In this document: in pieces, positions 1,235-39,378 of the stretch
How positions within the stretch are numbered: the stretch's first letter is position 1
Layout: every line of letters starts with the position of its first letter
DNA from: Clostridiales bacterium
GTDB taxonomy: Bacteria; Bacillota; Clostridia; TANB77; SIG350
DNA length: 64,000 nt
Direction: 5' to 3'
Assembly (NCBI GenBank): GCA_015056545.1
Contig: SVGE01000004.1
Location: 36,721-100,720 of the forward strand
Program-made: the position numbers and the translations under genes
Notes under the pieces: model-generated
Told to the model about the DNA's origin: nothing
Databases searched by the model: none
What the model saw: only the letters and a program-made list of their open reading frames with translations

Positions 1235-2110
1235 TTATATTACTCCTCTCTTAATTTTTACACCATATAAATCTTTTTTCGAGCAGCCAGCTCTTCCTCC
1301 TCCTGCACAGGCACACGCACAAGCGCAACTGCTCGCACAGGCACAACTACTTACGCAACTACTATGATAATGATGATGTCTATCATATCTATCATCATAA
1401 AAACCACTATGACTTGAATAAGGTGTAACTATAACAAATATCGCTACAAATATTATTATTCCAATTGGTATTAATAACATTAAATTATCAATTTGATTTT
1501 GCACCGAATTTGTCTGTTTTAAATCTTTAAAAGCTGTTTTTGCATAATACACTTCTGCTGTCATTTTTTCACTATAATCAAGATTTTGTTTATACCAAAC
1601 TAAATAATTATCAACAACTTTTGTAGCATTTGAATTTTTTATACTGTTGTTATTCCATTTAATAATCATTTCACCTATTTTACATTCATTAAACCACCCT
1701 GGTGTAAATTTAAAATTACAGTTACTTCCGCTTAATGTATAAATATTAGATTGATGCAAAGAAAAGGAAAATTTAATTGTTTCTCCTTGATAGTAATTTC
1801 TATCAAAATAAACTGCTACATAAGACCCGTTATATTTTTCAATTTTCTTTATATTATTTGTTAATGGTTTTAATTCATCAACACTTTTATTAGCAACCCC
1901 TATTTTTACCCAACTAAGTGGTCCTTCACTTGTAGAATCAAGAACAGTCCATTCTAGGTCATACCTAATATCTAATGTCCCATTTATTCTAGGATTAACA
2001 GTTACAATATACTTATTTATATAATCTAAATCTTTTGCATATGTATTAATACCAAATAGAGCTACTAAAAAGGTAACTAGTAAAATAATTTTTATTAAAC
2101 ATTTTTTCAT
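1235..2110 (-). CDS. signal-peptide membrane-anchored protein with a His/Cys/Ala-rich cytoplasmic tail
   Basis: AAAGGAGG RBS and ATG at 2110 (MKKCLIKIILLVTFLVALFG signal peptide). About 200 aa ectodomain, one C-terminal TM, then tail DRHHHYHSSCVSSCACASSCACACACAGGGRAGCS. The start overlaps the stop of the upstream rSAM gene (ATGA). Confidence 0.6.
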   Translation of the reverse strand: MKKCLIKIILLVTFLVALFGINTYAKDLDYINKYIVTVNPRINGTLDIRYDLEWTVLDSTSEGPLSWVKIGVANKSVDELKPLTNNIKKIEKYNGSYVAVYFDRNYYQGETIKFSFSLHQSNIYTLSGSNCNFKFTPGWFNECKIGEMIIKWNNNSIKNSNATKVVDNYLVWYKQNLDYSEKMTAEVYYAKTAFKDLKQTNSVQNQIDNLMLLIPIGIIIFVAIFVIVTPYSSHSGFYDDRYDRHHHYHSSCVSSCACASSCACACACAGGGRAGCSKKDLYGVKIKRGVI

Positions 2111-3495
2111 TTCGTAGCCTCCTTTAATGGACATTTATTAATATTTTTGCAAGAATAGATACGTATCTTTTTACATTTTTCTGAATTCCAAACTTTTTCC
2201 CATTTATCTTGTAACATATTACCTAGTCCCGCTTCATTATTAAGCCAACTTTGGCATGGAACAATCTGTCCATCTGGTGCAATTGCCATATTACTTAAAC
2301 ATGCTCCACAAGAAGGAATATTCATTCCTAATTTTTTAAGTTCATACCCTTGTACCCAACCTGGTGATGTAAAGTCTATTTCCATTAAATTCTCATCTGT
2401 ATATTTTTTGGCTTTAATTAATATTTCTAATAATTCATTTTCTTTTAATTGTGTATCTTTTGACTCTTTATTTAAAGCATTCCCAGTTACTATTAATCCA
2501 GAACAAGTCACATATTTAATACCTAATTCATTTGCAAATTTTAAAGTTTCTTCATAATCTGAATTTAGTTTACAAAGTGGTGTATTAATACTAACATTTA
2601 AATTAGCTTTTACTGCATTTTTAATTCCTTCAACCGTTTTTTCAAAATTATTAGCACCAACTAGCTTGTTATGTATTTCTGGAATATTTGAATATAGAGT
2701 AACTTGAACACTATCTAAACTCGCATCATATAATTTTCTGCAAAGTTCTTCTGTTAATAATACTCCATTTGTATTAAGTCTAGTTATAAACCATTTAGAA
2801 TAATCTATTAATTCAACTAAATCTTCTCTTTTTGTAGGTTCTCCACCTGTAAATGTTAATTGTGGAATATAACTTACTTTGCATTTATCTATTACTTTTT
2901 TCCACTCTTCTGTAGACAACTCTTTCGTTTCAGCATAAACTTGACCTGCAGCATAACAATGTATACATTTTTGATTACAATTCCATATTCCATCCTTTTG
3001 CATAGAACTTATCATTAAATCCATTCTATGTGGTGCCAACATATTTTTAGAATATTTGCTTATAGATAATTGCCCTATATTTACTTTTACTTCTCTTCCT
3101 AGAGCAACATCAGATAATGTTCCAATTAAAATATCCAAATCTATAATAAATCTTTTCTTTTTTGTAAAACAATATATTTTAGACATTCTTATTGATATTT
3201 CTTTTTTTATTTTTTCTATCTCTTCTTGTGTAATTTCTTTTCCTTCATATTCATTAATTTTTTCAATGAACATTGAAAGCATAATAGTCCATGCTAAATT
3301 TATAGGAATAATGTCTTTTCCATTTAATATAACTAAACTAGGTTTAGTTTTTAATAAATTCAATTTAGCAGGAATTAAATGAATTCTTACAACACCTGGC
3401 TCATATGGATTTAATGTTGTATGTAATACTTTATTAAGATTTTTTCTACAATATAAATATTCACTAAGAGTCATATTCTTTCTCCTTTTCGACAT
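2107..3495 (-). CDS. radical SAM protein with C-terminal SPASM/twitch-type Cys cluster and ~170-aa N-terminal extension
   Basis: CNQKCIHC (CxxxCxxC) at about residue 175, GGEP motif (LTFTGGEPTK), and C-terminal CGAC...PC cysteine cluster. Confidence 0.75.
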   Translation of the reverse strand: MSKRRKNMTLSEYLYCRKNLNKVLHTTLNPYEPGVVRIHLIPAKLNLLKTKPSLVILNGKDIIPINLAWTIMLSMFIEKINEYEGKEITQEEIEKIKKEISIRMSKIYCFTKKKRFIIDLDILIGTLSDVALGREVKVNIGQLSISKYSKNMLAPHRMDLMISSMQKDGIWNCNQKCIHCYAAGQVYAETKELSTEEWKKVIDKCKVSYIPQLTFTGGEPTKREDLVELIDYSKWFITRLNTNGVLLTEELCRKLYDASLDSVQVTLYSNIPEIHNKLVGANNFEKTVEGIKNAVKANLNVSINTPLCKLNSDYEETLKFANELGIKYVTCSGLIVTGNALNKESKDTQLKENELLEILIKAKKYTDENLMEIDFTSPGWVQGYELKKLGMNIPSCGACLSNMAIAPDGQIVPCQSWLNNEAGLGNMLQDKWEKVWNSEKCKKIRIYSCKNINKCPLKEATK

Positions 3496-8926: not shown

Positions 8927-10195
8927 CTACTTTAATTCCCATGCTTTTTCTTCTGTTGTGCCTCCATCTGGTTCATCTATTACTTGGATATCAGAGCTTA
9001 GAGTAACTACTGGGCGCAAACCATACGCGCCTTCATTATCGTAGCCACTAGAAGTGAATACTTGGGTCCAGTTCAAGCCGCCTAAGTCCACACAGCGCAC
9101 AGCAAAGCAAGCCACATCACAGTCGAACCATATATCCACACAAGAAGAAGACAGCCAGTATTCACTGTTTCCAAAGTTTCCAAAGATTAAGTCCTTTTCT
9201 GTATCTGTCGCTACTGTTGCATCTGTTAAACTTGATTCTACATAACCATAAGAATTTGGAGCATATTCTCCTAGTTCTTTTCCTTCTTCTGGTACTTTTC
9301 TATTTGCTATTGTACTTACTCCTGTCGCTCCACTTGCTTCTAACTCTGCTATTGTTCTTACCCCTGCTGGTACATTATGACCTTCTTCATCTGTTCCAAA
9401 ATAGTCCCAGTTTATTTCGTTATCGCCCCATGTTCTGTCATCTTTTAATAGTTCATTTACATCTTCTATTTTTAAGTTTCTTCCTCCATATACTACTCTA
9501 CATATTTCATCTAATCTATCTGGACCGTATGCATATCCATTTGCTCCGCTTAGATATATATTCTCTACTGGTTCTGCACTTACTAATGTTACTGTATTTT
9601 CATCTTTTTTTAATACTCTCCACATTATATCTTGGTATCCTATTTCATAGCTTGCTGTAGAATAAAGCTTTTTATATATCCATTCTCTTTCATCTTCTGA
9701 TACTGTATATGTTCCTTGTTTCTCTTCTGGTATATTATAATTCACATAATGTCCTACTTGTAACTTTTTTACTACTGAATTTTCTGGTATTGCTCCTTTT
9801 CCTATTCCTAATTCTGCTAACCATATGTTATATGGGTCTTCAGTTCTTGTTCCTAATACTATCTCTCCATTACTTATTGCTATTAAGTCTTTATATTCTT
9901 CTTTTAATTCGGGGATTATTTCTTTTATTTTTTCATATTCTGTTTCATTATATAATCCACCTTCTCCATTTCCGGTTGCTAATTCTATTTGTTTTTCTGC
10001 ATTCTTTACTGCTAGTATTTCTTGATATGTTCGTATATCGCTTTTAAATACTGCTTCTTTTGCCTTCTCTATTATTCCACCTTCCATAAAAGTTACAATA
10101 ACTGCTGCTGTTAATATTATTAGCACAATTATTGTTACGATTAAAGCAACTAGCGATATACCTGATGTTTTTTTACTATTCTTTAAATTTTTCAT
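8927..10195 (-). CDS. pilin-like N-terminally anchored protein with C-terminal CLec-fold-like hypervariable region (putative DGR target), copy 1
   Basis: AGGAGG RBS. N-terminus MKNLKNSKKTSG-ISLVALIVTIIVLIIL (basic leader, Gly, hydrophobic helix). YWLSSS, then a ~117-nt variable segment, then YGLRPVVTLSS. The first 115 aa are 95% identical to the paralog at 21524-22747. Confidence 0.7.
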   Translation of the reverse strand: MKNLKNSKKTSGISLVALIVTIIVLIILTAAVIVTFMEGGIIEKAKEAVFKSDIRTYQEILAVKNAEKQIELATGNGEGGLYNETEYEKIKEIIPELKEEYKDLIAISNGEIVLGTRTEDPYNIWLAELGIGKGAIPENSVVKKLQVGHYVNYNIPEEKQGTYTVSEDEREWIYKKLYSTASYEIGYQDIMWRVLKKDENTVTLVSAEPVENIYLSGANGYAYGPDRLDEICRVVYGGRNLKIEDVNELLKDDRTWGDNEINWDYFGTDEEGHNVPAGVRTIAELEASGATGVSTIANRKVPEEGKELGEYAPNSYGYVESSLTDATVATDTEKDLIFGNFGNSEYWLSSSCVDIWFDCDVACFAVRCVDLGGLNWTQVFTSSGYDNEGAYGLRPVVTLSSDIQVIDEPDGGTTEEKAWELK

Positions 10196-21523: not shown

Positions 21524-22747
21524 CTATTTTATTTCCCAGGCTGTTTCTTGTGTATCTCCTCCTGCTTCTTTATCTACTACTTGGATGCTAGAGCTTAGAG
21601 TAACTACAGGGCGCAAACCATACACGCCGTCGTTCTCGCCACCAATCGAAGTGTACAAGTAGTACGCGCCCACGCGGTCGCCGCCCACATTGCGCACATC
21701 GAAGTCCGCAACGTCGTCGTAGAAACGAACATAAGCGCAAGACGAAGACAGCCAGTAGTACTTATCTCTAAATATCATGTCTTTTGCTTTTTCACTCGCT
21801 TCTGTACATTCTGATTTATTATAGTAGTAATATAACTCTAATTCTTCATAATTGTCGGGTTTGCTCCAACCACTTACATCATATTCTTCCTCTGCTATTG
21901 CGTCTCCAAATGTAAACCCTATTTCTTTATTTACTTGATTATACTCTTCGTCATCATAACATGGCTCTGGTTCATATTTTAATACTTCATTTACATCTTC
22001 TACTCTTAAGTTCCTTCCTCCATATACTTCTGCACATATTGCATCTAATGCTCCTGGTCCTTTTGTAAATCCTTCTTCTCCATATAGGTATATATTTTCC
22101 ACTGGGTCTGCACTTACTAATGTTACTGTGCTGCCATTATTTTTTAGTACTCTCCACTTTATTTCTTCGTTATATCCTATTACTTCTTCTCCTTCAGTAT
22201 ATGACCAACTTTCATCTCCATCATTATATATCCAATTTGTTGCTTCTGCTCCCAGTTTTTCGGTTATATTATATGTCTTTCTTTCTCCTTCCGGTATACT
22301 ATATTTTACATAGTCTCCTTCTTCTAATAATCCTATATCTGATGTTTCTCCTTCTCCTATCCCTAATTCTGCTAACCATTCACTATATGGGTCATCAGTT
22401 CTTGTTCCTAATACTATTTCTCCATTACTTATTGCTATTAAATCCTTATATTCTTCTTTAAATTCGGGGATTATTTCTTTGATTTTTTCATATTCTGTTT
22501 CATTATATAATCCGCCTTCTCCATTTCCGGTTGCTAATTCTATTTGTTTTTCTGCATTCTTTACTGCTAGTATTTCTTGATATGTTCTTATATCACTTTT
22601 AAATACCGCTTCTTTTGCCTTCTCTATTATTCCACCTTCCATAAAAGTTACAATAACTGCTGCTGTTAATATTATTAATACAATTATTGTTACTATTAGT
22701 GCAACTAAGCTTATACCTGATGTTCTACTATTTCTTAAATTCTTCAT
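21524..22747 (-). CDS. pilin-like N-terminally anchored protein with C-terminal hypervariable region (putative DGR target), copy 2
   Basis: Paralog of 8927-10195. N-terminal 115 aa and C-terminal 30 aa are conserved. The variable segment 21624-21741 is ~58% GC and encodes DDVADFDVRNVGGDRVGA using NNC codons. Confidence 0.7.
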   Translation of the reverse strand: MKNLRNSRTSGISLVALIVTIIVLIILTAAVIVTFMEGGIIEKAKEAVFKSDIRTYQEILAVKNAEKQIELATGNGEGGLYNETEYEKIKEIIPEFKEEYKDLIAISNGEIVLGTRTDDPYSEWLAELGIGEGETSDIGLLEEGDYVKYSIPEGERKTYNITEKLGAEATNWIYNDGDESWSYTEGEEVIGYNEEIKWRVLKNNGSTVTLVSADPVENIYLYGEEGFTKGPGALDAICAEVYGGRNLRVEDVNEVLKYEPEPCYDDEEYNQVNKEIGFTFGDAIAEEEYDVSGWSKPDNYEELELYYYYNKSECTEASEKAKDMIFRDKYYWLSSSCAYVRFYDDVADFDVRNVGGDRVGAYYLYTSIGGENDGVYGLRPVVTLSSSIQVVDKEAGGDTQETAWEIK

Positions 22748-29368: not shown

Positions 29369-30571
29369 TTATATATCCTTTAGACTTACTTCTAAATTTT
29401 CAAATATATGTGACTTTATATTTTCACCAAAACTATATTGCTGTTTTAATTCATATTTATTTTTTTCATTTAAAACAAATATGTCTGTTATTCTCGTTAC
29501 AGGATCTACTATCCAATATTCTTTTACTCCATATTTTTCATATATCTTATATTTTCTTATTCTATCATGTGTAACATTACTAGATAATATTTCTACTACT
29601 AGTGTTGGTGCTCCATATATTCCATCAGATTTTATCTTTTCCATATCACATACTATCATTATATCTGGCTGAACCACAACTGATGTATTTTCTTTTTCTT
29701 CCCCATCCAAAAATACATCAAATGGTTCAACATATGATTTGCATTTTTTCCCCTTTAAGAATCTTTTAAACTCAAACGAGATTTCACCTAATATATCTTG
29801 ATGAATTTCTTTTGGACTTGCAAATAAAAATATTTCGCCATATATTAACTCATACCTTTTATCTCCAAATATTGCTTCTGCCTCCTCATATGTATAATTG
29901 TTTATTCTATATGCTTCTCTTGGCTCTTGTAACATAGATATATTTTTATTTTCTTTTTTTATTTCATAATCTTCATTATAATATTCTTTTAAATTTACTT
30001 GCAAATTTTCAAATATATATGATTTTATATTTTCATCAAAACTATATTGCTGTTTTAATTCATATTTATTTTTTTCATTTAAAACAAATATATCTGTTAT
30101 TCTCGTTACAGGATCTACTATCCAATATTCTTTTACTCCATATTTTTCATATATCTTATATTTTCTTATTCTATCATGTGTAACATTACTAGATAATATT
30201 TCTACTACTAGTGTTGGTACTCCATATATTCCATCAGATTTTATCTTTTCCATATCACATACTATCATTATATCTGGCTGAACCACTATTTCTCTATCTT
30301 CTTTTTCTTTTCCATCTAAAAAAACATCAAATGGTGCTATATATGATTTGCATTTTTTTTGTTCAAAAAAATTGCCAAATACTCTTGAAATCTTTCCTAA
30401 TATATCTTGATGAATTTCTTTTGGACTTGCAAATAAAAATATTTCCCCATATATTAACTCATACCTTTTATCCCCAAATATTGCTTCTGCCTCCTCATAT
30501 GTATAATTGTTTATTTTATATGCTTCTCTTGGCTCTTGTAACATAGATATATTATCTTTTTCATTTTCCAT
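29369..30571 (-). CDS. tandem double Uma2-family (DUF820, PD-(D/E)xK) endonuclease fusion
   Basis: Two ~200-aa repeats (NISMLQEPREAY...IVDPVTR) encoded by ~600-bp DNA repeats about 97% identical (29400-29990 vs 30000-30590). RBS-supported start at MENEKD. Confidence 0.7.
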   Translation of the reverse strand: MENEKDNISMLQEPREAYKINNYTYEEAEAIFGDKRYELIYGEIFLFASPKEIHQDILGKISRVFGNFFEQKKCKSYIAPFDVFLDGKEKEDREIVVQPDIMIVCDMEKIKSDGIYGVPTLVVEILSSNVTHDRIRKYKIYEKYGVKEYWIVDPVTRITDIFVLNEKNKYELKQQYSFDENIKSYIFENLQVNLKEYYNEDYEIKKENKNISMLQEPREAYRINNYTYEEAEAIFGDKRYELIYGEIFLFASPKEIHQDILGEISFEFKRFLKGKKCKSYVEPFDVFLDGEEKENTSVVVQPDIMIVCDMEKIKSDGIYGAPTLVVEILSSNVTHDRIRKYKIYEKYGVKEYWIVDPVTRITDIFVLNEKNKYELKQQYSFGENIKSHIFENLEVSLKDI

Positions 30572-30597
30572 TTTATATTTCTCCTTTCTATCTCTAT

Positions 30598-31188
30598 TTA
30601 ACAAGATATTCTAAATTTATTATTGTCAATATTTTTTAAATCTACTTCTAAACCATTAAAGATTTTTGATTTAACTATTCCATTAAATAAAATTTTACTT
30701 ATTAATTCATATTTATTTAGATTATCTAATACATATATTTTTACTAATCTTTTATTTATATCAACTATCCAATATTCCTTTACTCCATATTTTCCATATA
30801 GCTTCATCTTCTTTTTATTATAATTAGTAGCATTAACTTCTATTTCAACTATTAATACTGGTACACCATATATTCCATCTTCTTTAATATATTCTTCTTT
30901 TTGTATTACCATAATATCTGGTTTTATTATATATTTTGCTATTTCTTTATTATCACTATCTAATATTAAATCAATTTGTCCCAAAAATGGCTCATAATTC
31001 TTATTCTTAAAATATTTTCTAAAGGTTTCAAATATTTCATACAATATTCGTTGGTGAGTTAATCTTCTGTTTGATATTAAATATTTTTCTCCATTTATTA
31101 CTTTAAATCTATTATCTGATATATTTTCTATCTTATCCATTCTCATCACCTCTGGATATATTGTACAACAATTTTCTTTATTTGTCAA
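30598..31188 (-). CDS. Uma2-family (DUF820) putative endonuclease
   Basis: 196 aa, with the same family motifs (D...EVDL / VKEYWIVD) as the adjacent duplicated gene. Confidence 0.65.
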   Translation of the reverse strand: MTNKENCCTIYPEVMRMDKIENISDNRFKVINGEKYLISNRRLTHQRILYEIFETFRKYFKNKNYEPFLGQIDLILDSDNKEIAKYIIKPDIMVIQKEEYIKEDGIYGVPVLIVEIEVNATNYNKKKMKLYGKYGVKEYWIVDINKRLVKIYVLDNLNKYELISKILFNGIVKSKIFNGLEVDLKNIDNNKFRISC

Positions 31189-31196
31189 TTTGGCAT

Positions 31197-31613
31197 TTAT
31201 ATATTTTCTAATTCATATATTTTTTCAAAGGTAATATTTTTCTCTCTTAATGTACTAGTATCATAAACTATTGAAAAGCATTGATAATACTTAGCAATAG
31301 CAATATGCAAAGCATCATTATATCTGCTTTTTTCAATAATATTATTATCTACATATCTTTTTGCAATTTTTAATATAATATTATTTATTTTTAAAATTTT
31401 AACATTTTCAATTCTTTTTAGCATATCTTTATAAGATATCTCTTGTTCATACATACAATAACTTTTTAATTCCAATAGTGTTAATTCAGATATATATAAA
31501 TCCATTTTCATTTTACTAAAAGTTTCTTCAAAATATGGATTTACTAAGCAAGATATATCTAAGTACGCCCTCCTTATTCTACTAATTCCTCTTAAAACCG
31601 CTTCATTTTCCAT
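31197..31613 (-). CDS. PIN-domain protein (VapC-like nuclease fold)
   Basis: AYLDISCLV N-terminal acidic motif and DALHIAIA distal acidic motif. 138 aa. Last gene of the Tad/VirB4-like operon. Confidence 0.55.
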   Translation of the reverse strand: MENEAVLRGISRIRRAYLDISCLVNPYFEETFSKMKMDLYISELTLLELKSYCMYEQEISYKDMLKRIENVKILKINNIILKIAKRYVDNNIIEKSRYNDALHIAIAKYYQCFSIVYDTSTLREKNITFEKIYELENI

Positions 31614-31616
31614 TAT

Positions 31617-32237
31617 TTAACCTACCTTTCTACATAATTCTCTTTCCATTTCTGTTAATGTATAGTCTTTATTTTCAATTTTGTATTTTACTAACTCATT
31701 TATATTTTTTAATTCATTTACTTTTTCTATAGCTTTAACTGTTGGTAATAATTTTTGGTATTGTTTTTCAATTTGTGTATATATCTTATCCATTGATTTA
31801 ACATCACCATCTTTAAAAGCTTTTTCCCACTTATTATATTTTTCATCTATCTTTTGTAATATTTTTTCTTGTCCTTCAAACCTATTTTTAGTTTCATCAC
31901 TTATTAATTTATCTATTATTATATCTTTGCAATCAGATAACTTATCTGCTATATTTTTATCTACATCTTTCAATGTATTAATTGCATTAGTTACTGTATC
32001 TGATATACTTCCAATAAATCCTTTTTCTTCAATTATATTTTTAACATCTTGCACATCTGAAACACTTCTATTTTTATCAAAAATATTGTCAAAAACATTT
32101 TTTATTTTATTTTGCACTACATCATTTGTTAAAATATTCTTAGCTGTTATAACTATTGTTTCTGTGCTTTTCCTTAATGGTAATGCTTTTACCACATTAT
32201 CAAAAGTTTTATCAAAAACTTGTGCATTTAATTCCAT
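31617..32237 (-). CDS. hypothetical soluble, predicted helical protein
   Basis: 206 aa, K/D/E-rich, no TM. Confidence 0.45.
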   Translation of the reverse strand: MELNAQVFDKTFDNVVKALPLRKSTETIVITAKNILTNDVVQNKIKNVFDNIFDKNRSVSDVQDVKNIIEEKGFIGSISDTVTNAINTLKDVDKNIADKLSDCKDIIIDKLISDETKNRFEGQEKILQKIDEKYNKWEKAFKDGDVKSMDKIYTQIEKQYQKLLPTVKAIEKVNELKNINELVKYKIENKDYTLTEMERELCRKVG

Positions 32238-32249
32238 ACTTATTCCTCC

Positions 32250-33194
32250 TTAATTATCAACTTTTTTAACATAAATAATTAAAAATACCATAATCCATAT
32301 ACTAATAAAATTCCAATAAATAATTATTCTCCCTATAAAATCATTAACCATAATATTATAATTTTCTGTATTAGAATTTATAAAATTAAAATAAACAAAA
32401 AGTGACATCCCTATTAAAATTATTAAAACAATTCTTGCAGACATCGTTTGTTCATTCCTATTAACTTTTTCTCTATAAACTTTCATATATATGTTTTGTG
32501 TTTTATCTAATAAATCATAAAAACTTCCCCCATTTATATAACAACTTTCTAAATTTGTTATTAATTGCTTAAATCTATCAATATTTATTTTATTTTTTAG
32601 ATTATCAAAAGCTTGAGCGATATTTACTCCATTATTAACCTCAAATATAAATATTTTTATATATGTTTCTAATGGTTTTCCTGCATATTTAGCAGTATTT
32701 TTAAAAGCTAAGATTATATCATTATATGTTCTTACTTGATTTTTTAATTGGATAATATATGTTATAAGATTTTTTTCTAATTTTTCTTCATAGACATCTG
32801 CAAGAATTAATAATGCAAATATTGGAATAAAAGAAATGCAACCGCTTAATATTAATGTTGCAATTTTCAATTTAAGAATACTAATTAAAAGAATATATGA
32901 TATGAAGAATAGTATAATACATAATAATATTATTGTCTCTGGGATAAACCACCATAATAATTTATTTTCTGTAATTCCTGTTTTTATTAATAACAAATAT
33001 ATCTTATCTCTTAAATTATATTTTTCATTTATATATTTTTTATTTTTTCTATATACCATTTTTTGTATATATTTTTCATTTTCATTTAAAAGCTTTTGCT
33101 TTATTTTTTTATGTACATTTTTTTCATATAAAATATTTAAACAAAAATATATAAATATACTAATTGTAATAAACAATAAAATTTTAATTGCCAT
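32250..33194 (-). CDS. TadB/TadC-like (T2SSF-domain) inner-membrane platform protein
   Basis: N-terminal TM, cytoplasmic helical domain (...NQVRTYNDIILAFKNTAKYAGKPLETY...GVNIAQAFDNL), then two C-terminal TMs. Confidence 0.6.
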   Translation of the reverse strand: MAIKILLFITISIFIYFCLNILYEKNVHKKIKQKLLNENEKYIQKMVYRKNKKYINEKYNLRDKIYLLLIKTGITENKLLWWFIPETIILLCIILFFISYILLISILKLKIATLILSGCISFIPIFALLILADVYEEKLEKNLITYIIQLKNQVRTYNDIILAFKNTAKYAGKPLETYIKIFIFEVNNGVNIAQAFDNLKNKINIDRFKQLITNLESCYINGGSFYDLLDKTQNIYMKVYREKVNRNEQTMSARIVLIILIGMSLFVYFNFINSNTENYNIMVNDFIGRIIIYWNFISIWIMVFLIIYVKKVDN

Positions 33195-34512
33195 TTTCCT
33201 CCTCCATTATTCTTTTTATTTCTAATTCATTAATATCAAATTTATTTTTAACAATATATTTAGGATCATTTATCTTTTTAAAATATCCTTGAACTTTTCC
33301 ATCAATTATTTTATCTATAACAAATTCAAATAATTTATTATAAATTATTTCTTGCTTTTTTATATCATAATATACTTCTGTTATTTCTTTTACTTTAAAA
33401 TTTTGCATATATATTATTAATTCAATACTTGTCCCTAATATTTGCTCTAAATATTTATTTGTATATTGAATCGCCCTATTATCTCTTTTCATTAAAGTAA
33501 TTAGTCTGTTAATTGTATTTGTTGAACTATTAGAATGAACTGTTGCATATCCACTATGTCCTGTTGAAATACCATCAACAAAAGTCATTGCTTCTGCTCC
33601 TTTTAATTCACCAACAACAATTGCATCATTTGACATTAAAAGTGCTTGTTTAGATAGTTTTTCTAATGTTATATTTTTGTCCTCTGTTCTGTTTTGCACC
33701 ATTTCTCTTTGAATAATATTATCATGTTTGCAAAAAAGCTCTGCTGTTTCTTCATTAGAAGTAATAGCAACTGTTTCTGGAATTTTATTAATAATTGCTC
33801 TAAGTAAAGTAGTTTTTCCACTCGCACCTTTGCCACTAATTATTATATTAATACCAGAAATAGCACATTTTATTAAAAAAATATATATTTGGGGATTTAT
33901 CATACCACTACCAGAAAGTAGTAGAGTTTCAAGATTTTTTAAATTATTAGGTCTATGAATTCTAATAACCAAATTGGGACTAATAATATTTACAGGTTCA
34001 ATTCCCGCTTCTATTCTTAAATTATTTTGTTTATCACTAACAACTGTAACTGGAATTTCATTATTAATTTTTCCACCGTTTTTAAGAATACAATATCTAA
34101 CAAAATTTGAATATTCTTTTTCATCTTCAAATTCATCTATTGCTTTTAACCATTTACCATTTTTCTTTATATATATTTTATTAAACTCAATTGCTCGAAT
34201 ATCTGAAACTTCTTCATCTTCTATATACTTTTGCAATATATAGTAACCAAAGAAACGATCCATAACATTTTTAACAATTTTATTAATATCTATATCTCTA
34301 TTTGAATAACTATTAACAACTTTTTCTTTAACTAAATTTTCAATACTCTTTTTGTTTTTCTCACTAGAAATATTACTAAGCATTTCTGAATGTTTATCTA
34401 ATAAAAAATCTATAATATTATTTACAATCTTATCATTATTGGCCTCATATATCATTTTATCTTCTTGCACAATACTTTGGTTACTGCTGTCTTGCAAAGG
34501 ATTAATTAACAC
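33184..34512 (-). CDS. TadA/CpaF/VirB11-family secretion ATPase
   Basis: Walker A ISGKGASGKTT, Asp/Glu box IVVGELKGAEA, and His box GHSGYATVHSNS. Confidence 0.8.
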   Translation of the reverse strand: MLINPLQDSSNQSIVQEDKMIYEANNDKIVNNIIDFLLDKHSEMLSNISSEKNKKSIENLVKEKVVNSYSNRDIDINKIVKNVMDRFFGYYILQKYIEDEEVSDIRAIEFNKIYIKKNGKWLKAIDEFEDEKEYSNFVRYCILKNGGKINNEIPVTVVSDKQNNLRIEAGIEPVNIISPNLVIRIHRPNNLKNLETLLLSGSGMINPQIYIFLIKCAISGINIIISGKGASGKTTLLRAIINKIPETVAITSNEETAELFCKHDNIIQREMVQNRTEDKNITLEKLSKQALLMSNDAIVVGELKGAEAMTFVDGISTGHSGYATVHSNSSTNTINRLITLMKRDNRAIQYTNKYLEQILGTSIELIIYMQNFKVKEITEVYYDIKKQEIIYNKLFEFVIDKIIDGKVQGYFKKINDPKYIVKNKFDINELEIKRIMEEENGN

Positions 34513-35786
34513 TAAAACACCTCCTTAATAGCCCTACTTAGCTTTGAAAAAATAGGTTTCTTATCATATATACCTAATAATTCTTGATATTTTTGTTTTT
34601 CAATAATATCTGTAAAAACAATTGGAACATTATTATTAATACTTTCTATATATTTATCTTTATAATCAAAAACTTGAACAATCTCTAAATCTTTTTCAAT
34701 ATCATTTATACTTTGCCTATTTAAACTAAATCTAGTTTGTTTATTTAAAATAAATTTAATTTTATTAAATAATACATTCCATGCTTTTGTATAAATATAT
34801 AAAATGTTTTTCATATTAGATATATCTGTATAATTACCTTGAAAAATATAATAAATTAAATCTGCATTTTCCAATGCCCATTTAGTAGAATCTAAAAATA
34901 AGCTACTATTAGTATCAATAACAATATAATCATAAAGTTGCTTTGCTTTATTTAGTATTTGATTATAGTAATTATCACATAAAATACTTTGACAAACGAA
35001 CATTGAATTATTTCCTGTAATAATTGATACATTTTTTTCTTTTGGATATGTAATAACACTTTTTTCAAAAATATCATAATCTAAATTATCTTTTTGTATA
35101 CAATCAACCATATAGTTTAATACACATCTTTTATCATTATCTAAATTGCAAATAATTTCTTTATTCAATTTATTAACACCAAGAATTTTATCAATATTTG
35201 CTGTTGTTGTATCTAAATCAATAATAAGTACTTTTTTATTATATTCTTTTGCAATAGTAATAGCTAAATTACTTACAAATGTACTTTTTCCACTTCCAGA
35301 TAATCCATTTACAGTTATTATCTTTTTGTCTAAAACATTTCTAATAGTTACACTATTTAGATTCTTTGTATTATTAAGTTTTTCTTTTAAATCAATTATT
35401 TGATTATATAATTTTTTCTCATTAGGATTTTCAATTTCATTATCTATATTTTTACATAATAGTTCTAATGTTATTTCTTCTGAATTTATTATTTTAAATA
35501 TTCCTTTAGATATTAAAAAATTAATAAACTCTTTATTCTCTTTATCTAGTATAATAATAATATCTATATTTTGTTTTGTATCTATAATAGCTTCAATAAA
35601 CTCTTTTTTATCAAGTTCACCATCAAGTTCATCATATATTACTAATTTATCTATATTATTTTTAGAAATGACATCCAAAACTGCCTCTTGATAAGCAATA
35701 TCACCAAATAATATGTTATATTTTTCTAATTTTCTTAATTCATTATTAATATTTTCATTTCCAATACCAGTTATAATATTATACAT
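34512..35786 (-). CDS. TadZ/CpaE-like ATPase (N-terminal receiver-like domain plus ParA/MinD-type NTPase)
   Basis: P-loop NGLSGSGKST, A' box KKVLIIDLD, Walker B YDYIVIDTNSS, and ~110-aa N-terminal alpha/beta domain. Confidence 0.6.
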   Translation of the reverse strand: MYNIITGIGNENINNELRKLEKYNILFGDIAYQEAVLDVISKNNIDKLVIYDELDGELDKKEFIEAIIDTKQNIDIIIILDKENKEFINFLISKGIFKIINSEEITLELLCKNIDNEIENPNEKKLYNQIIDLKEKLNNTKNLNSVTIRNVLDKKIITVNGLSGSGKSTFVSNLAITIAKEYNKKVLIIDLDTTTANIDKILGVNKLNKEIICNLDNDKRCVLNYMVDCIQKDNLDYDIFEKSVITYPKEKNVSIITGNNSMFVCQSILCDNYYNQILNKAKQLYDYIVIDTNSSLFLDSTKWALENADLIYYIFQGNYTDISNMKNILYIYTKAWNVLFNKIKFILNKQTRFSLNRQSINDIEKDLEIVQVFDYKDKYIESINNNVPIVFTDIIEKQKYQELLGIYDKKPIFSKLSRAIKEVF

Positions 35787-37596
35787 AATCTATCCTTTCT
35801 AAATTATCTTTATTTTCAATTATATCTTTTTCAAATTCACTGCTAGATACATTTAATAAAATATTATTTTTATTAATAATTAGCAAGCATTCTCCTCTTA
35901 ATAAATTTAATATTCTGTCTTTTTCATTTTCTGAAATATATATTAAATTTTTAAGTTCAGATATATTTTCTTCATTTAATTTAAAAATTGCTTTTATACT
36001 AGAATTATTTATAATAGCTTTTCCATAAACATTTTGATTAATAATTAAATCAGAGATATCTTGAGTTATGGCTGTTGCTCCACCCTTATATTTTCTAATA
36101 GTTTTAAATATTTGTATAACAAAGTTAGCACATAAATCATTTTCTTTTGATGAAATTAGTCTCCATATTTCATCAATATATATAATCTTTTTTTGCAGAT
36201 TATCTTGTTTAACTATATTCCAGAAAAATTCTATTATTACAAATAAAGATAAATTCATATATTCATCTTTAACATCACTTGTATCAATAAAAATCGAATT
36301 ATTTTCTTTATCTACATTTGTATAATTGTTAAAATACTGCAAACTACCAAATATAAAAGGTTTAAGTAAATATATTAAATTAGGATATGTATTTTCTTTT
36401 AGAATAACATCATACAAATCCTGAATTCTAGGCATCTTATCATATGACTTAAATTTAGGTTTAATAATTAGTCTATTACTATTTTGTCTTTCATATAAAC
36501 TTTTATTATCAAAAGTTATTCCTTTATCTTGATATATTTGAATAATCTTTTCTTCTAAGTAATTTTTACTTTCTATATCTAAATCGGGAAAAACTATAGA
36601 AAAGAAAATATTTAAATTTTGTATTTTTTCTTGTAAATAACCAATATTTTCATTATTAATATTTGAATGTTCATATATATCAAAAATATTAATATATGTA
36701 TTAGTATTATTGCCAAGCTTAATATATGTTCCATTAAGTTTTTTGCAAATATTTTTATACTCCCCTTCTGGATCTATAACAAATTGCTTAGTATTAAGCA
36801 AACTGTTTCTAATTACTTGCAATTTAGTGAAATATGATTTTCCACTTCCACTAGCTCCAAACACACAAATATTAGAATTAATATATTTTTCGCTATCAAA
36901 CCTATCTATAATTATTAATGATTTATTTTGAATATTATATCCATAAAGAATTCCTTTCATATCTGATACACTACATGAAATAAATGGATAAAAACTTGAT
37001 ACAGTTTTAGATATCATGTTTCTTTTAGAATTATATTTAATTTCTTTTGAATTTATATTAAATGGTAAGCAAGATTTATATAAATATATATGTCTAAAAT
37101 ATGGTACTTTTCCAATTAATCCATAACTATATAATATTGACTGAATCTTATTAATACTATCTTTTAGCTTATCTAAACTATCTTCATAAATACTAATATA
37201 CATATACACATTGTATATTTTTTCATTATTTATTTGAAGCTCTTTTCTTATTTCTTTAGCATCATTATATGTTATATTTAATACTTCATAATCTTGTTTA
37301 TTACCAGAACTCATTTTCATATCTGTATTAACATTTCCAATATGATAGGTTAGTTTTTTAATAACTTCATAGCTATTAATTTTTTCTAAAAACATTGAAA
37401 ACTGAATGTTACTATCTAAATATAATAATTTTTCAAGCAAACCTATTTCAATAATTCTTGGATAATCTACAATTATCATACCTGAATAATATAGACCATC
37501 AACAAGTAAATAAGCAGGATTTCTATTATCTAATAAGCTGGGCATAATTCTATCTATAACTTCATTTTTAAAATTGAACTTATTTAATGTTTTCAT
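35779..37596 (-). CDS. VirB4/TraC-family (HerA-FtsK superfamily) ATPase, C-terminal 605-aa portion
   Basis: Walker A GASGSGKS, DPEGEY, Walker B IYIDEIWRL, and RKYKGGATAITQD (RK...TQ) motif. Confidence 0.65.
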   Translation of the reverse strand: MKTLNKFNFKNEVIDRIMPSLLDNRNPAYLLVDGLYYSGMIIVDYPRIIEIGLLEKLLYLDSNIQFSMFLEKINSYEVIKKLTYHIGNVNTDMKMSSGNKQDYEVLNITYNDAKEIRKELQINNEKIYNVYMYISIYEDSLDKLKDSINKIQSILYSYGLIGKVPYFRHIYLYKSCLPFNINSKEIKYNSKRNMISKTVSSFYPFISCSVSDMKGILYGYNIQNKSLIIIDRFDSEKYINSNICVFGASGSGKSYFTKLQVIRNSLLNTKQFVIDPEGEYKNICKKLNGTYIKLGNNTNTYINIFDIYEHSNINNENIGYLQEKIQNLNIFFSIVFPDLDIESKNYLEEKIIQIYQDKGITFDNKSLYERQNSNRLIIKPKFKSYDKMPRIQDLYDVILKENTYPNLIYLLKPFIFGSLQYFNNYTNVDKENNSIFIDTSDVKDEYMNLSLFVIIEFFWNIVKQDNLQKKIIYIDEIWRLISSKENDLCANFVIQIFKTIRKYKGGATAITQDISDLIINQNVYGKAIINNSSIKAIFKLNEENISELKNLIYISENEKDRILNLLRGECLLIINKNNILLNVSSSEFEKDIIENKDNLERIDYV

Positions 37597-38158
37597 AACT
37601 ATTTTCCCTTTCGTTTAATATTTGTGATACTTTTTTTATTAAATACTCATCATCATAATCAGAAAAATCTGTAACTATATTCCCACATTTAATTAAATTT
37701 TCTTTTATAACTAAATACATATCATTTAAAATATTTATTATTTCATTTATTGGATTATTATTAAGATTTTTAATTGAGAAAACAATATAGAATTCTTTTG
37801 AATAAATATAATTTGAATTTGTTAGATTTAAGATATATTCAATATATTTATATGAAATTTCATTTTTGTTATTAATTGAATTAATATAATTAATATGATT
37901 TTCTACATTTTCTTTTTTAGTTTTAATAAATATTTGAAAATCAAATGAACAAATTTTTAAGAATTGATTATATTGGTTTAAAATTTGCCTTTTCTCAGTT
38001 TCAGATTTTAAACTAAAATTAATTGGATATACTTGAACTATTTTTGCATATATATTATTTTTTAAAACTAGTACATTTTTTTGAATATCAATAATATCTA
38101 ATAAAGCTTTTATATTTTTTATTTTCATCACCAAATACATTTTACTATAGTTTACCAT
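37580..38158 (-). CDS. N-terminal fragment of the same VirB4-family protein (frameshift-split)
   Basis: 192-aa ORF that overlaps the next ORF by 17 nt in another frame. Together they restore a ~790-aa VirB4-like architecture with the P-loop at about residue 435. Confidence 0.5.
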   Translation of the reverse strand: MVNYSKMYLVMKIKNIKALLDIIDIQKNVLVLKNNIYAKIVQVYPINFSLKSETEKRQILNQYNQFLKICSFDFQIFIKTKKENVENHINYINSINNKNEISYKYIEYILNLTNSNYIYSKEFYIVFSIKNLNNNPINEIINILNDMYLVIKENLIKCGNIVTDFSDYDDEYLIKKVSQILNERENSYENIK

Positions 38159-38287
38159 TATTTGTCAATAAAAATCGTTCGACCAAATATGACAAACCAG
38201 CTTGAAAATAGCTTGTTTACACCATTACATGTTTTTATTTTTTTAATATTTTTATTTAATTTAACATATATTTAATTGGTGATATTT

Positions 38288-38857
38288 ATGATGAACTATA
38301 TTTGGTCTTTTATGATAATACTCTCTCTTATATATTCGATTATTTTTAATAAATTAGATATTGCTACAAATGCAATGTTTGATGGGGCTAATGATGCTGT
38401 AGATCTTACAATATTAATGTTTGGACTAATAACTTTATGGAATGGTATTATGAATATTTTATCGAATACAAGTATTATGCATTGGATATCTAAATTAATA
38501 ACCCCTATAATCTCTAAAATATTTTCTGGTTTAGATAAAAATTCTAAAGCATATAATTATATTTGTTTAAATTTCACAGCAAATTTATTAGGTCTGGGGA
38601 ATGCTTCTACACCACTTGGATTAAGTGCTGTCAAAGAATTAGAAAAGGAAATAGACGGTAAAAAACATATTTTAAAATTAATATTAATAAATACTGCTGC
38701 ACTTCAATTAATTCCATCTACTGTAATCGGACTAAGAAGCATGCTTGGAAGCGAAAATCCAAATTCAATTATATTGCATATATGGATATGTTCACTTATT
38801 TCAATTACAACAGCTTTATTTAGCTATAATTTATTATTAAGGAGAAAAAAATTATGA
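38288..38857 (+). CDS. spmA: spore maturation protein A (nucleoside-recognition domain)
   Basis: Gate/nucleoside recognition family pattern. Paired with spmB. Confidence 0.7.
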   Translation: MMNYIWSFMIILSLIYSIIFNKLDIATNAMFDGANDAVDLTILMFGLITLWNGIMNILSNTSIMHWISKLITPIISKIFSGLDKNSKAYNYICLNFTANLLGLGNASTPLGLSAVKELEKEIDGKKHILKLILINTAALQLIPSTVIGLRSMLGSENPNSIILHIWICSLISITTALFSYNLLLRRKKL

Positions 38858-39378
38858 ATATTATAAATTACATTACATCGTTAATAATTCCACTTTTTGT
38901 ATTAATCACTATATTTATTGGAATAAAAGAAAAAAAGCCAGTATTTGACCTTTTTATAGATGGTGCTAAAAGTGGTGTAGATACTGTTATAAAAATATTT
39001 CCTAATTTAATAGCTCTATTTTTAGCAATAAATATTTTTCAAGCTTCAGGATTATTAGATTTTATAACTAATTTACTAAATCCAATAACTTCACTTATTG
39101 GTATTCCACAAGAAATTTTGCCACTTGGTATACTGCGTCCTATTTCTGGAAGTGGTTCAATGGCACTTCTTCAAAAAAATTTAGAAATATTTGGTGTAGA
39201 TTCATATTTAGGGAAAGTAGCTGCAACTATTATGGGAGCTGGTGAGACTACATTTTTTACAATTGCTATATATTGTAGTGTTACTAAAATAAAAATACCT
39301 AAAAAACTTATAATTTCTGCTCTAGCAGCTGATAGCATGGTTATTCTTTCAAGCATATATATTTATAAGTTTTTCTAG
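38854..39378 (+). CDS. spmB: spore maturation protein B
   Basis: Start overlaps the spmA stop (ATGA). Same family. Confidence 0.7.
   Translation: MNIINYITSLIIPLFVLITIFIGIKEKKPVFDLFIDGAKSGVDTVIKIFPNLIALFLAINIFQASGLLDFITNLLNPITSLIGIPQEILPLGILRPISGSGSMALLQKNLEIFGVDSYLGKVAATIMGAGETTFFTIAIYCSVTKIKIPKKLIISALAADSMVILSSIYIYKFF

Follow-up and report, generated by a model that had tools for sequence, protein, structure and literature searches.

What a VirB4 ATPase does in the same operon as genes of a Tad-like pilus, and whether such a combination is a functional unit at all, is the question raised by a seven-gene operon in a 64,000-nucleotide stretch of DNA from a Clostridiales bacterium (GTDB lineage Bacillota; Clostridia; TANB77), which was analysed at its full length and is called the window below (assembly GCA_015056545.1, contig SVGE01000004.1, positions 36,721 to 100,720 of the forward strand). 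The original prediction, made from the sequence alone, had described seven minus-strand open reading frames (ORFs) that overlap or lie at most 12 nt apart, and all seven were found (Table 1); read in the 5' to 3' direction, neighbouring ORFs overlap by 17, 8, 1 and 11 nt at the first four junctions, and the last two junctions are gaps of 12 and 3 nt. Profile searches upheld its domain calls, so the mixed composition of VirB4 and Tad-like genes is correct. It had left two possibilities, a novel hybrid apparatus or a fused remnant of two systems, and the second has to be given up, since the operon is a selected unit that is syntenic across a lineage in the chromosomal core.

The analysis gives good support to the view that the operon derives from the ATPase and platform part of a Gram-positive conjugative element in which a VirB4-type type IV secretion system (T4SS) was joined to a Tad-like pilus module, and that it has become fixed in the chromosome and is inherited vertically. 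It is likewise well supported that the ancestral gene set, which is kept in the window, comprised a split VirB4, a TadZ-like ParA, a CpaF-like ATPase, one TadB-like platform protein and a new helical protein (p24x, represented by p206 in the window), and that it lay between gyrB and gyrA near oriC.

The 605-amino-acid (aa) protein belongs firmly to the VirB4 family, and not to some non-VirB4 clade, on the evidence of both profile and PDB matches. It matched the NCBIfam model for the conju_CD1110 VirB4-like family (E-value 7.6e-74; 249.3 bits, under the 325-bit equivalog cutoff), the Mbov_0397 model (1.1e-73; 248.3 bits, under the cutoff of 590), Pfam P-loop_TraG (4e-23, above the cutoff) and the C-terminal domain of VirB4 in PDB entry 4AG5 (6.8e-42). 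The motifs GASGSGKS, DPEGEY, DEIW and RK..TQD are all present, and with the exception of the two middle residues of DPEGEY they are invariant in 22 homologues drawn from both forms of the operon, the long and the short form described below. Homologues of the protein number in the thousands, and the best 120 are all about 550-640 aa long; therefore, the short VirB4 is a conserved architecture.

The TraC-like N-terminal domain is not on the same polypeptide as the ATPase, being encoded by a separate ORF of 182 or 192 aa, which had originally been taken for a fragment. It aligns to residues 22-178 of P0130, an 849-aa VirB4 (34% identity, E-value 3e-23, BLASTP), while residues 252-843 of P0130 are covered by the 605-aa ORF; moreover, a hidden Markov model (HMM) of the 192-aa family matches the N-termini of full-length VirB4 proteins in two relatives (L091, 6e-46; L092, 3.6e-21), and the precomputed Pfam assignment is PF26593, TraC-like. 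No transmembrane segment is predicted in it. Because the split into a TraC-like ORF of about 190 aa and an ATPase of about 600 aa is kept across the family, and because the small ORF is under purifying selection, with a ratio of nonsynonymous to synonymous substitution rates (dN/dS) of 0.17, it is not a fragment. In three metagenome contigs (L098, L099 and L107) VirB4 is divided among two to three ORFs that overlap and lie in different frames. L098 and L099 show a break in the housekeeping gene recF as well, which is suggestive of frameshifts introduced by assembly or sequencing and not of pseudogenes.

Purifying selection acts on every gene of the operon. With the Nei-Gojobori method and a 90%-identical relative for comparison, dN/dS was 0.17 for the TraC-like gene (TraC-N), 0.09 for VirB4, 0.10 for ParA, 0.09 for the T2SSE gene, 0.15 for the T2SSF gene, 0.13 for p206 and 0.07 for the PIN gene, the lowest of the operon; all seven genes were within 0.07-0.22, compared to 0.10 for the neighbouring cysK. 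The operon consists of real, functional genes.

A scan of one genome per GTDB species revealed relatives in at least 419 species-representative genomes. The best 80 of these, the loci of which were mapped, are all metagenome-assembled genomes of uncultured gut Clostridia, including Clostridium sp. CAG:793, Ca. Merdicola and Ca. Scatovivens; the latter two belong to the order TANB77, family CAG-508 (PMC13106387). The order in most of the 80 loci is dnaA-dnaN-recF-gyrB-(TraC-N, VirB4, ParA, p243/p248)-gyrA. A reverse search with p24x in metagenome contigs yielded 52 loci, and wherever the flank is present p24x is preceded by ParA or VirB4 and immediately followed by gyrA. Between gyrB and gyrA no other gene is recurrent; only sporadic genes were seen there, and no hidden small membrane gene of VirB3- or pilin-like type recurs between loci. 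In three loci (L024, L084 and L087) a two-component system is inserted between gyrB and the module, consisting of a response regulator and a membrane protein of about 715 aa that is the probable histidine kinase, and other species carry unrelated single-gene insertions at this place.

The three Tad-like proteins are assigned with different precision. The 424-aa protein is of the CbiA/ParA/MinD type (Pfam CbiA, 3.9e-11, plus AAA_31), carries the Walker A motif GLSGSGKS, the lysine of which is invariant in its family, and has MinD and PF-32 as its closest solved relatives in the PDB. Response_reg was matched by 4 of 29 family members. No TadZ-specific model was matched, and CpaE_hom_Actino gave an E-value of 0.044 only; the architecture, a receiver-like N-terminal domain followed by a ParA/MinD ATPase, and the position beside a CpaF-like gene fit TadZ/CpaE. 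The 442-aa protein passes the cutoff of Pfam T2SSE (3.4e-23), matches the NCBIfam models for VirB11 (1.2e-38, C-terminal domain only) and the TadA family (7.6e-33), and remains under every cutoff of the NCBIfam TadA, VirB11 and TrbB models; its best PDB match is CpaF (2.6e-25) over residues 12-409, that is, nearly its full length. The 314-aa protein has one T2SSF domain (Pfam, 3.8e-7, above the cutoff) and four transmembrane segments by hydropathy, four to six in its family, and it is the sole membrane protein of the operon. One T2SSF gene is the only platform gene, and there is neither a TadB plus TadC pair nor a fusion of the two.

The last core gene of the module is always p24x, a name used here for p206 together with the 243-248-aa family of the short-form loci. 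The 206-aa protein matched no family in Pfam or NCBIfam, and its homology to the 243-248-aa protein was recognized with hhalign (probability 99.3%, E-value 1.3e-20). The p24x family has 327 database members, without a Pfam domain and without a name; its proteins are acidic (median isoelectric point (pI) 5.2), and the structure model of p206 is all-helical (predicted local distance difference test score, pLDDT, 78). In one relative (L057, 11753-13150) the receiver-like N-terminal domain of ParA is joined to p24x via a lysine-rich linker in a single ORF of 465 aa from which the ATPase domain has been lost, and this fusion hints that the receiver-like domain and p24x work together.

Two forms of the module exist. 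The long form, with the T2SSE and T2SSF genes between ParA and p24x, is found in the window and in L001-L003, L007, L010, L012, L016, L023, L026, L053, L094, L095 and L090, the last being a distant relative (36% identity) with the same gene order; all other loci have the short form. Neighbour-joining trees of VirB4 place the long-form loci at the base and unite the short-form loci in a single clade nested among them, whether or not full-length VirB4 proteins are added as an outgroup, and therefore CpaF and T2SSF appear to be ancestral and to have been lost once. The core of the system is the split VirB4 with ParA and the helical p24x; most of the lineage has apparently lost CpaF and T2SSF. In L007 the block is found just after gyrB and in L010 between gyrB and gyrA, and it lies elsewhere in the window and L094, namely between a gene for a DnaJ-domain protein and cysK. 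It is well supported that in the clade of the window the PIN gene was gained and the block left the vicinity of the gyrase genes along with spmA/B.

The origin of the module can be read from its nearest relatives. A search of 1.84 billion cluster representatives returned first a few family members of about 600 aa and then mostly full-length VirB4 proteins of about 790-870 aa with 30-38% identity, among which more distant proteins of about 600 aa, e.g., P0156, are interspersed. The nearest full-length VirB4 is P0130 (38% identity), and the element that encodes it (L091) carries a relaxase, MobC, a T4SS pilin, VirD4 and an M23 peptidase, i.e., it is a true conjugative element. It also encodes a 430-aa TadZ-like protein with receiver and CbiA domains, followed by RcpC, and the HMM of the module's ParA family matches this protein with an E-value of 3.8e-39 (pairwise 1e-12). 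Genes with RelA_SpoT and HD_4 domains lie by the relaxase gene of L091 (3059-5391), and a PHD_like gene follows VirB4. Plasmid pVpro of Vallitalea pronyensis (L093) unites in one cluster PrgI, a 599-aa VirB4, an M23 peptidase, T2SSE, T2SSF, small pilin-like ORFs and a SAF-domain (CpaB-like) protein. Plasmids of the pAW63/pXO2 type encode a 645-aa VirB4 and a 444-aa VirB11-like ATPase (PMC1196294). The premise that conjugative T4SSs of Firmicutes lack such partners was therefore too strong, as L091, pVpro and pAW63/pXO2 combine them. Since VirB4 occurs with Tad- or VirB11-like proteins on mobile elements of Clostridia and Bacilli, the operon is best read as a domesticated subset to which p24x was added; no counterpart of p24x was found in the mobile-element relatives L091-L093. 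An Alkaliphilus megaplasmid, which gave the best T2SSE match, was considered as a third hybrid and rejected, because its Tad-like cluster with RcpC/CpaB has no annotated VirB4 within 14 kb.

A comparison with known systems shows what was kept and what is missing. The operon resembles the Gram-positive conjugative T4SS of the CD1110/Mbov_0397 type in that the 192-aa and 605-aa ORFs together span the whole VirB4 of that type, and it resembles the pAW63/pXO2 plasmids in that VirB4 is paired with a VirB11-like ATPase. It differs from Gram-positive conjugative T4SSs in the lack of a relaxase, VirD4, VirB3/PrgI, VirB6, VirB8 and a cell-wall hydrolase, in the division of VirB4 into two genes, and in being non-mobile, single-copy and syntenic in the chromosomal core, with an apparent developmental promoter. 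With the Tad/Flp (type IVc) pilus it has in common the gene order of a receiver-like plus ParA-type ATPase, then a CpaF-like ATPase, then a T2SSF platform; among solved structures CpaF is the best match of the 442-aa protein, and the ParA protein is related to the TadZ-like gene product encoded beside RcpC. In contrast to Tad/Flp systems, it has no pilin, prepilin peptidase, CpaB/RcpC or TadE/F, it has one platform gene instead of TadB plus TadC, it adds VirB4 and p24x, and CpaF and the platform are dispensable in most of its lineage.

The missing parts were not found nearby. As had been predicted, the candidate membrane proteins and uncharacterized proteins of the window gave no match to a pilin, prepilin peptidase, VirB6, VirD4 or relaxase family, nor did a motif of Flp-type pilins or of their dedicated peptidase (TadV/CpaA) turn up in the window. 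The window also contains no CpaB, no second platform gene and, by phmmer, no second T2SSE, T2SSF or ParA paralogue. No VirD4, relaxase or VirB6-, VirB3- or VirB8-like part was detected in the window or in the 130+ related loci, and no Flp-type pilin or prepilin peptidase was seen in the related loci either.

Chromosomal, non-conjugative use of a conjugation-derived VirB4-family ATPase may have parallels in the VirB4-dependent DNA import systems ComB of H. pylori and Ced of Crenarchaeota. These systems keep membrane channel components (ComB6-10 and CedA, respectively), none of which is present in the operon. The SpoIIIA-SpoIIQ channel may be another parallel, being a sporulation-linked hybrid built from secretion parts, namely a T2SSE/VirB11-like ATPase and a GspF-like membrane protein. 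It differs in that its proteins are of other families and sizes, that it is sigma-E dependent, and that it has neither VirB4 nor ParA, whereas the module has a sigma-A-type promoter with 0A boxes.

A promoter is predicted upstream of the operon. In the window, two 0A-box-like heptamers, TGTCATA (38194-38188) and GGTCGAA (38184-38178), are spaced 10 bp from start to start; box 2 is followed by the spacer CGATTTTTA, a -35 element TTGACA (38168-38163), a spacer of 18 nt and a -10 element TAAAAT (38144-38139), which together match the sigma-70-type pattern in 11 of 12 positions. The consensus of the orthologous promoters upstream of TraC-N is TGTCGAA-N3-TGTCGAA-CGATTTTT-(C/G)TTGACA-17 nt-TAnnAT. 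The exact heptamer TGTCGAA is present in 43 of 74 upstream regions of the module and in none of 49 control regions upstream of gyrA, and its density is 1.05 per kb in the spacer between gyrB and TraC-N versus 0.03-0.06 per kb in the rest of 1.34 Mb. Of 21 tandem-box matches, 19 lie upstream of TraC-N. The composite of box, 19 nt, TTGAC, 15-19 nt and TAnnWT was found in 33 of 79 loci, and only twice elsewhere in 2.68 Mb; in all 33 loci the distal box and the -35 element are 19 nt apart. It recurs in independent metagenome loci, and a weakened form is seen in L094 and the window.

The core box that Spo0A recognizes in B. subtilis as well as in C. difficile is TGTCGAA, with contacts to G2, C4 and G5 (PMC3485338). 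We infer from the predicted boxes that phosphorylated Spo0A would activate the operon directly, and the conserved Spo0A-box promoter upstream of the module is new here. The genome of the window contains the sporulation genes SipL and YunB and an AbrB-family gene. A promoter for a sporulation sigma factor was considered and rejected: SigE, F, G, K and H patterns upstream of the module were not enriched over controls or shuffles, and only the sigma-A type together with 0A boxes stood out. Gene calls in L002, L003 and L094 start at the counterpart of ATG 38128, and in the window this start is favoured because ATG 38158 falls between the predicted -35 and -10 elements; the first gene therefore probably starts at 38128 and encodes 182 aa. 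This start leaves about 3-5 nt from the expected transcription start to the start codon, so that the operon transcript may be nearly leaderless. The sole exact TGTCGAA in the window is at 3488-3494 (minus), some 20 nt ahead of what is probably an internal start (AGGAG-N8-ATG) in the radical-SAM/SPASM gene 2107-3495.

The best explanation of the whole, a tentative one to which we would give a little less than an even chance, is that the domesticated VirB4-Tad descendant forms a Spo0A-switched two-motor membrane machine. Phosphorylated Spo0A would bind the pair of 0A boxes that closely precedes the -35 element and would thereby switch on the operon as cells enter stationary phase or sporulation, and the TadZ-like ATPase would place the complex at a defined membrane site. 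VirB4 works together with VirB11 in T4SS pilus biogenesis; here, a CpaF-like hexamer on the TadB-like platform and a two-chain VirB4 hexamer would together make up a machine with two motors at the cytoplasmic side of the membrane. It would extract and assemble, or export, pilin-like or other envelope substrates encoded elsewhere, with p24x as a lineage-specific adaptor. In species with the short form, the platform and CpaF would need to be supplied by a separate Tad-like cluster that is conserved in TANB77.

It should be noted that several observations weigh against this explanation. In none of the loci does the module have a linked substrate, pilin, peptidase or cell-wall hydrolase gene, and the fold search with p206 gave generic helical matches only and was thus uninformative. 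The short form encodes no protein with a predicted transmembrane segment (by hydropathy), and therefore a membrane role there would need partners encoded elsewhere; in addition, ParA was lost in L046, L066 and L073, and its ATPase domain alone in L057. The VirB4 trees on which the order of events is based are distance trees without bootstrap support. The boxes of the window are degenerate, as box 2 keeps G2, C4 and G5 and box 1 lacks G5, and in the long-form loci L007, L016, L023 and L026 the boxes are absent or unrecognizable. A search of the locus sequences for spo0A with an approximate B. subtilis Spo0A query matched receiver domains only, and the literature evidence for Spo0A in TANB77 is indirect (PMC11536998). 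Lastly, Spo0A also controls processes other than sporulation, and thus the timing does not fix the function.

The strongest of the competing explanations, unlikely as we judge it, is a DNA-handling machine, in which a hexamer of VirB4 (FtsK/HerA superfamily), a ParA-type ATPase and p24x would act on DNA as sporulation or stationary phase begins; they might anchor the origin-proximal chromosome, segregate it or pump it into the forespore, or else import DNA via a Tad-type fibre, in the way of the VirB4 homologues of ComB and Ced. The position near oriC between the gyrase genes across the lineage, the Spo0A-box promoter and the descent from a DNA-transfer apparatus would all fit, as would the fact that ParA-type ATPases typically position DNA or large complexes and that the minimal conserved set (split VirB4 and p24x, usually with ParA) is entirely soluble by transmembrane prediction. 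However, no DNA-binding domain was detected in any component with Pfam or NCBIfam, the acidic p24x (median pI 5.2) is a generic helical bundle, and the known DNA motor of T4SSs is VirD4, which is absent here, and not VirB4. Moreover, the ParA homologue groups with TadZ-like proteins that position pili, and the ancestral pair of CpaF and T2SSF is a signature of filament assembly. Somewhat less likely still is the bolder proposal that a lineage including TANB77 has turned the motor set of a conjugative plasmid (split VirB4, TadZ and once CpaF plus platform) into a Spo0A-controlled developmental machine at the origin-proximal chromosome or at the division/sporulation septum; that such a machine, e.g., a chromosome-anchoring, DNA-translocating or intercompartment-transport device, is specific to this uncultured lineage is given the same low probability.

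It is improbable that the TGTCGAA repeats bind a regulator other than Spo0A and that the module has a vegetative housekeeping role tied to gyrB-gyrA and oriC, e.g., by co-regulation with gyrase or replication. Its location between gyrB and gyrA in most species would be accounted for in this way, as would the failure to find Spo0A in the locus sequences searched and the retention of a sigma-A-type promoter by several long-form loci without recognizable boxes. Yet the heptamer does not differ from the core motif of Spo0A (PMC3485338), it is repeated directly at a 10-bp interval immediately before the -35 element, it is not found ahead of gyrA, the clade of the window has retained the operon although it lies away from the gyrase genes, and sporulation genes are present in the window.

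A smaller probability still is left for the view that this is simply a Tad (type IVc) pilus operon with a VirB4 gene as a chance neighbour, and that its pilin and prepilin peptidase lie just outside the region. TadZ-like, CpaF-like and TadB-like genes do occur in Tad order, and TANB77 has a conserved, lineage-specific Tad-like pilus cluster, which encodes CpaB (358 aa), TadZ (231), CpaE (280), CpaF (640), a fused TadC/B (693) and seven pilin-like proteins and is present in 122 of 129 species, with species of CAG-492 among those that lack it, VirB4 not being mentioned (PMC11680825). Because gene content and protein sizes differ between this published cluster, which has no VirB4, and the operon, the two are to be regarded as separate loci. 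The absence of a pilin, peptidase, CpaB and second platform gene from the window contradicts this reading too, and no canonical pilin or peptidase lies near the operon there, so the objection that it might be a widespread, known Tad variant finds no footing; furthermore, it is VirB4 that is best conserved and most constantly present, whereas the module can do without the Tad-like ATPase and platform. A decaying or still-mobile integrative conjugative element (ICE), or its non-functional remnant, is scarcely credible despite the derivation of the components from conjugative elements, a GC content of the operon of 0.20 as against 0.25-0.28 in the flanks, and nuclease genes (PIN, Uma2) at the operon end, since dN/dS of 0.07-0.22 for every gene and the chromosomal position shared by hundreds of species rule out a pseudogene or ICE remnant, the catalytic motifs are invariant, and an integrase, relaxase, VirD4 or repeats are missing. 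An anti-phage defence system was also considered and discarded, PADLOC having returned only generic HerA and mads_8 P-loop matches.

The remaining features of the locus are less closely tied to the domesticated VirB4-Tad module. The 138-aa protein matched Pfam PIN narrowly (3.8e-5; 24.7 bits against a cutoff of 23.6), and its candidate acidic residues, read from the sequence, are D19, E43/E48, D100 and D118. No antitoxin-like small gene adjoins it, the upstream gene being p206, and it is confined to the clade of the window (window, L007, L010, L094 and L095). On the other side, the operon shares a 117-bp intergenic region, which holds the promoter, with a divergent pair of Gate-domain genes; the pair is divergent from the operon also in L007, L010 and L094 and is thus a conserved neighbour in this clade. 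It may be SpmA/SpmB-like, which is our own reading of the gene pair, as NCBIfam gave no equivalog match.

Table 1. Features of the operon and its promoter region in the window
Feature	Position	Strand	Description
VirB4 N-terminal domain as a gene of its own (TraC-like)	37580-38158	minus	192 aa; likely true start 38128 (182 aa)
VirB4-family ATPase body	35779-37596	minus	605 aa; intact Walker A, Walker B and arginine-finger-type motifs
TadZ-like ATPase	34512-35786	minus	424 aa; atypical receiver-like N-domain, then MinD/ParA-type P-loop domain
CpaF/VirB11-clade hexameric secretion ATPase	33184-34512	minus	442 aa; T2SSE
T2SSF (TadB/TadC-like) polytopic membrane platform protein, single-domain	32250-33194	minus	314 aa
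p206, member of the lineage-specific helical p24x family	31617-32237	minus	206 aa
PIN-domain protein, accessory	31197-31613	minus	138 aa; Pfam PIN
Gate-domain gene pair (SpmA/SpmB-like, tentatively), divergent from the operon	38276-39378	plus	precomputed Pfam: Gate on both
Predicted operon promoter	38139-38194	minus	sequence read and sigma-70-type match

Two genes of the Uma2 family (putative restriction endonucleases; 29369-31188, minus) directly follow the PIN gene, and one of them encodes a 411-aa protein with two full Uma2 domains in near-identical halves. In L094 (90% identity) the PIN gene is followed straight by cysK, and the Uma2 genes therefore represent a recent lineage-specific insertion. 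The GC content in 2-kb windows is 0.20-0.31 over the whole window and 0.20-0.22 across the operon (31000-38200), lower than in the flanking housekeeping regions (0.25-0.28), although purifying selection is comparable to that on cysK.

Elsewhere in the window, two paralogues of 422 aa (8927-10195, minus) and 407 aa (21524-22747, minus) share a near-identical N-terminal stretch of about 115 aa, which begins MKNL(K/R)NS..SG-ISLVALIVTIIVLIILTAAV, while their C-terminal parts are divergent. Their pilin-like N-termini (KKTSG-ISLVALIV) had led to the speculative suggestion that they are candidate substrates; no pilin family of Pfam or NCBIfam was matched, and a link to the operon is speculative. A similar segment, G-VSFIGMLIALAIVVLV, is carried by a small protein of the plasmid Tad-like cluster (L093, 12678-12920).

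No published description of this module was found in a full-text literature search. A two-chain form of VirB4, the signature ATPase of conjugation and T4SSs, is kept in the chromosomal core of hundreds of species without a channel, a coupling protein or a relaxase, and annotation pipelines of the CONJscan type could take the locus for a degenerate ICE. TANB77 bacteria are uncultured, have reduced genomes and have been tied to the response to cancer immunotherapy via pilus proteins (PMC11680825), and a second lineage-specific envelope or ATPase system in the same lineage bears on that biology. If the proposed descent and role are true, the module would be a clear case of conjugation machinery that has been given a cellular function in Gram-positive bacteria.

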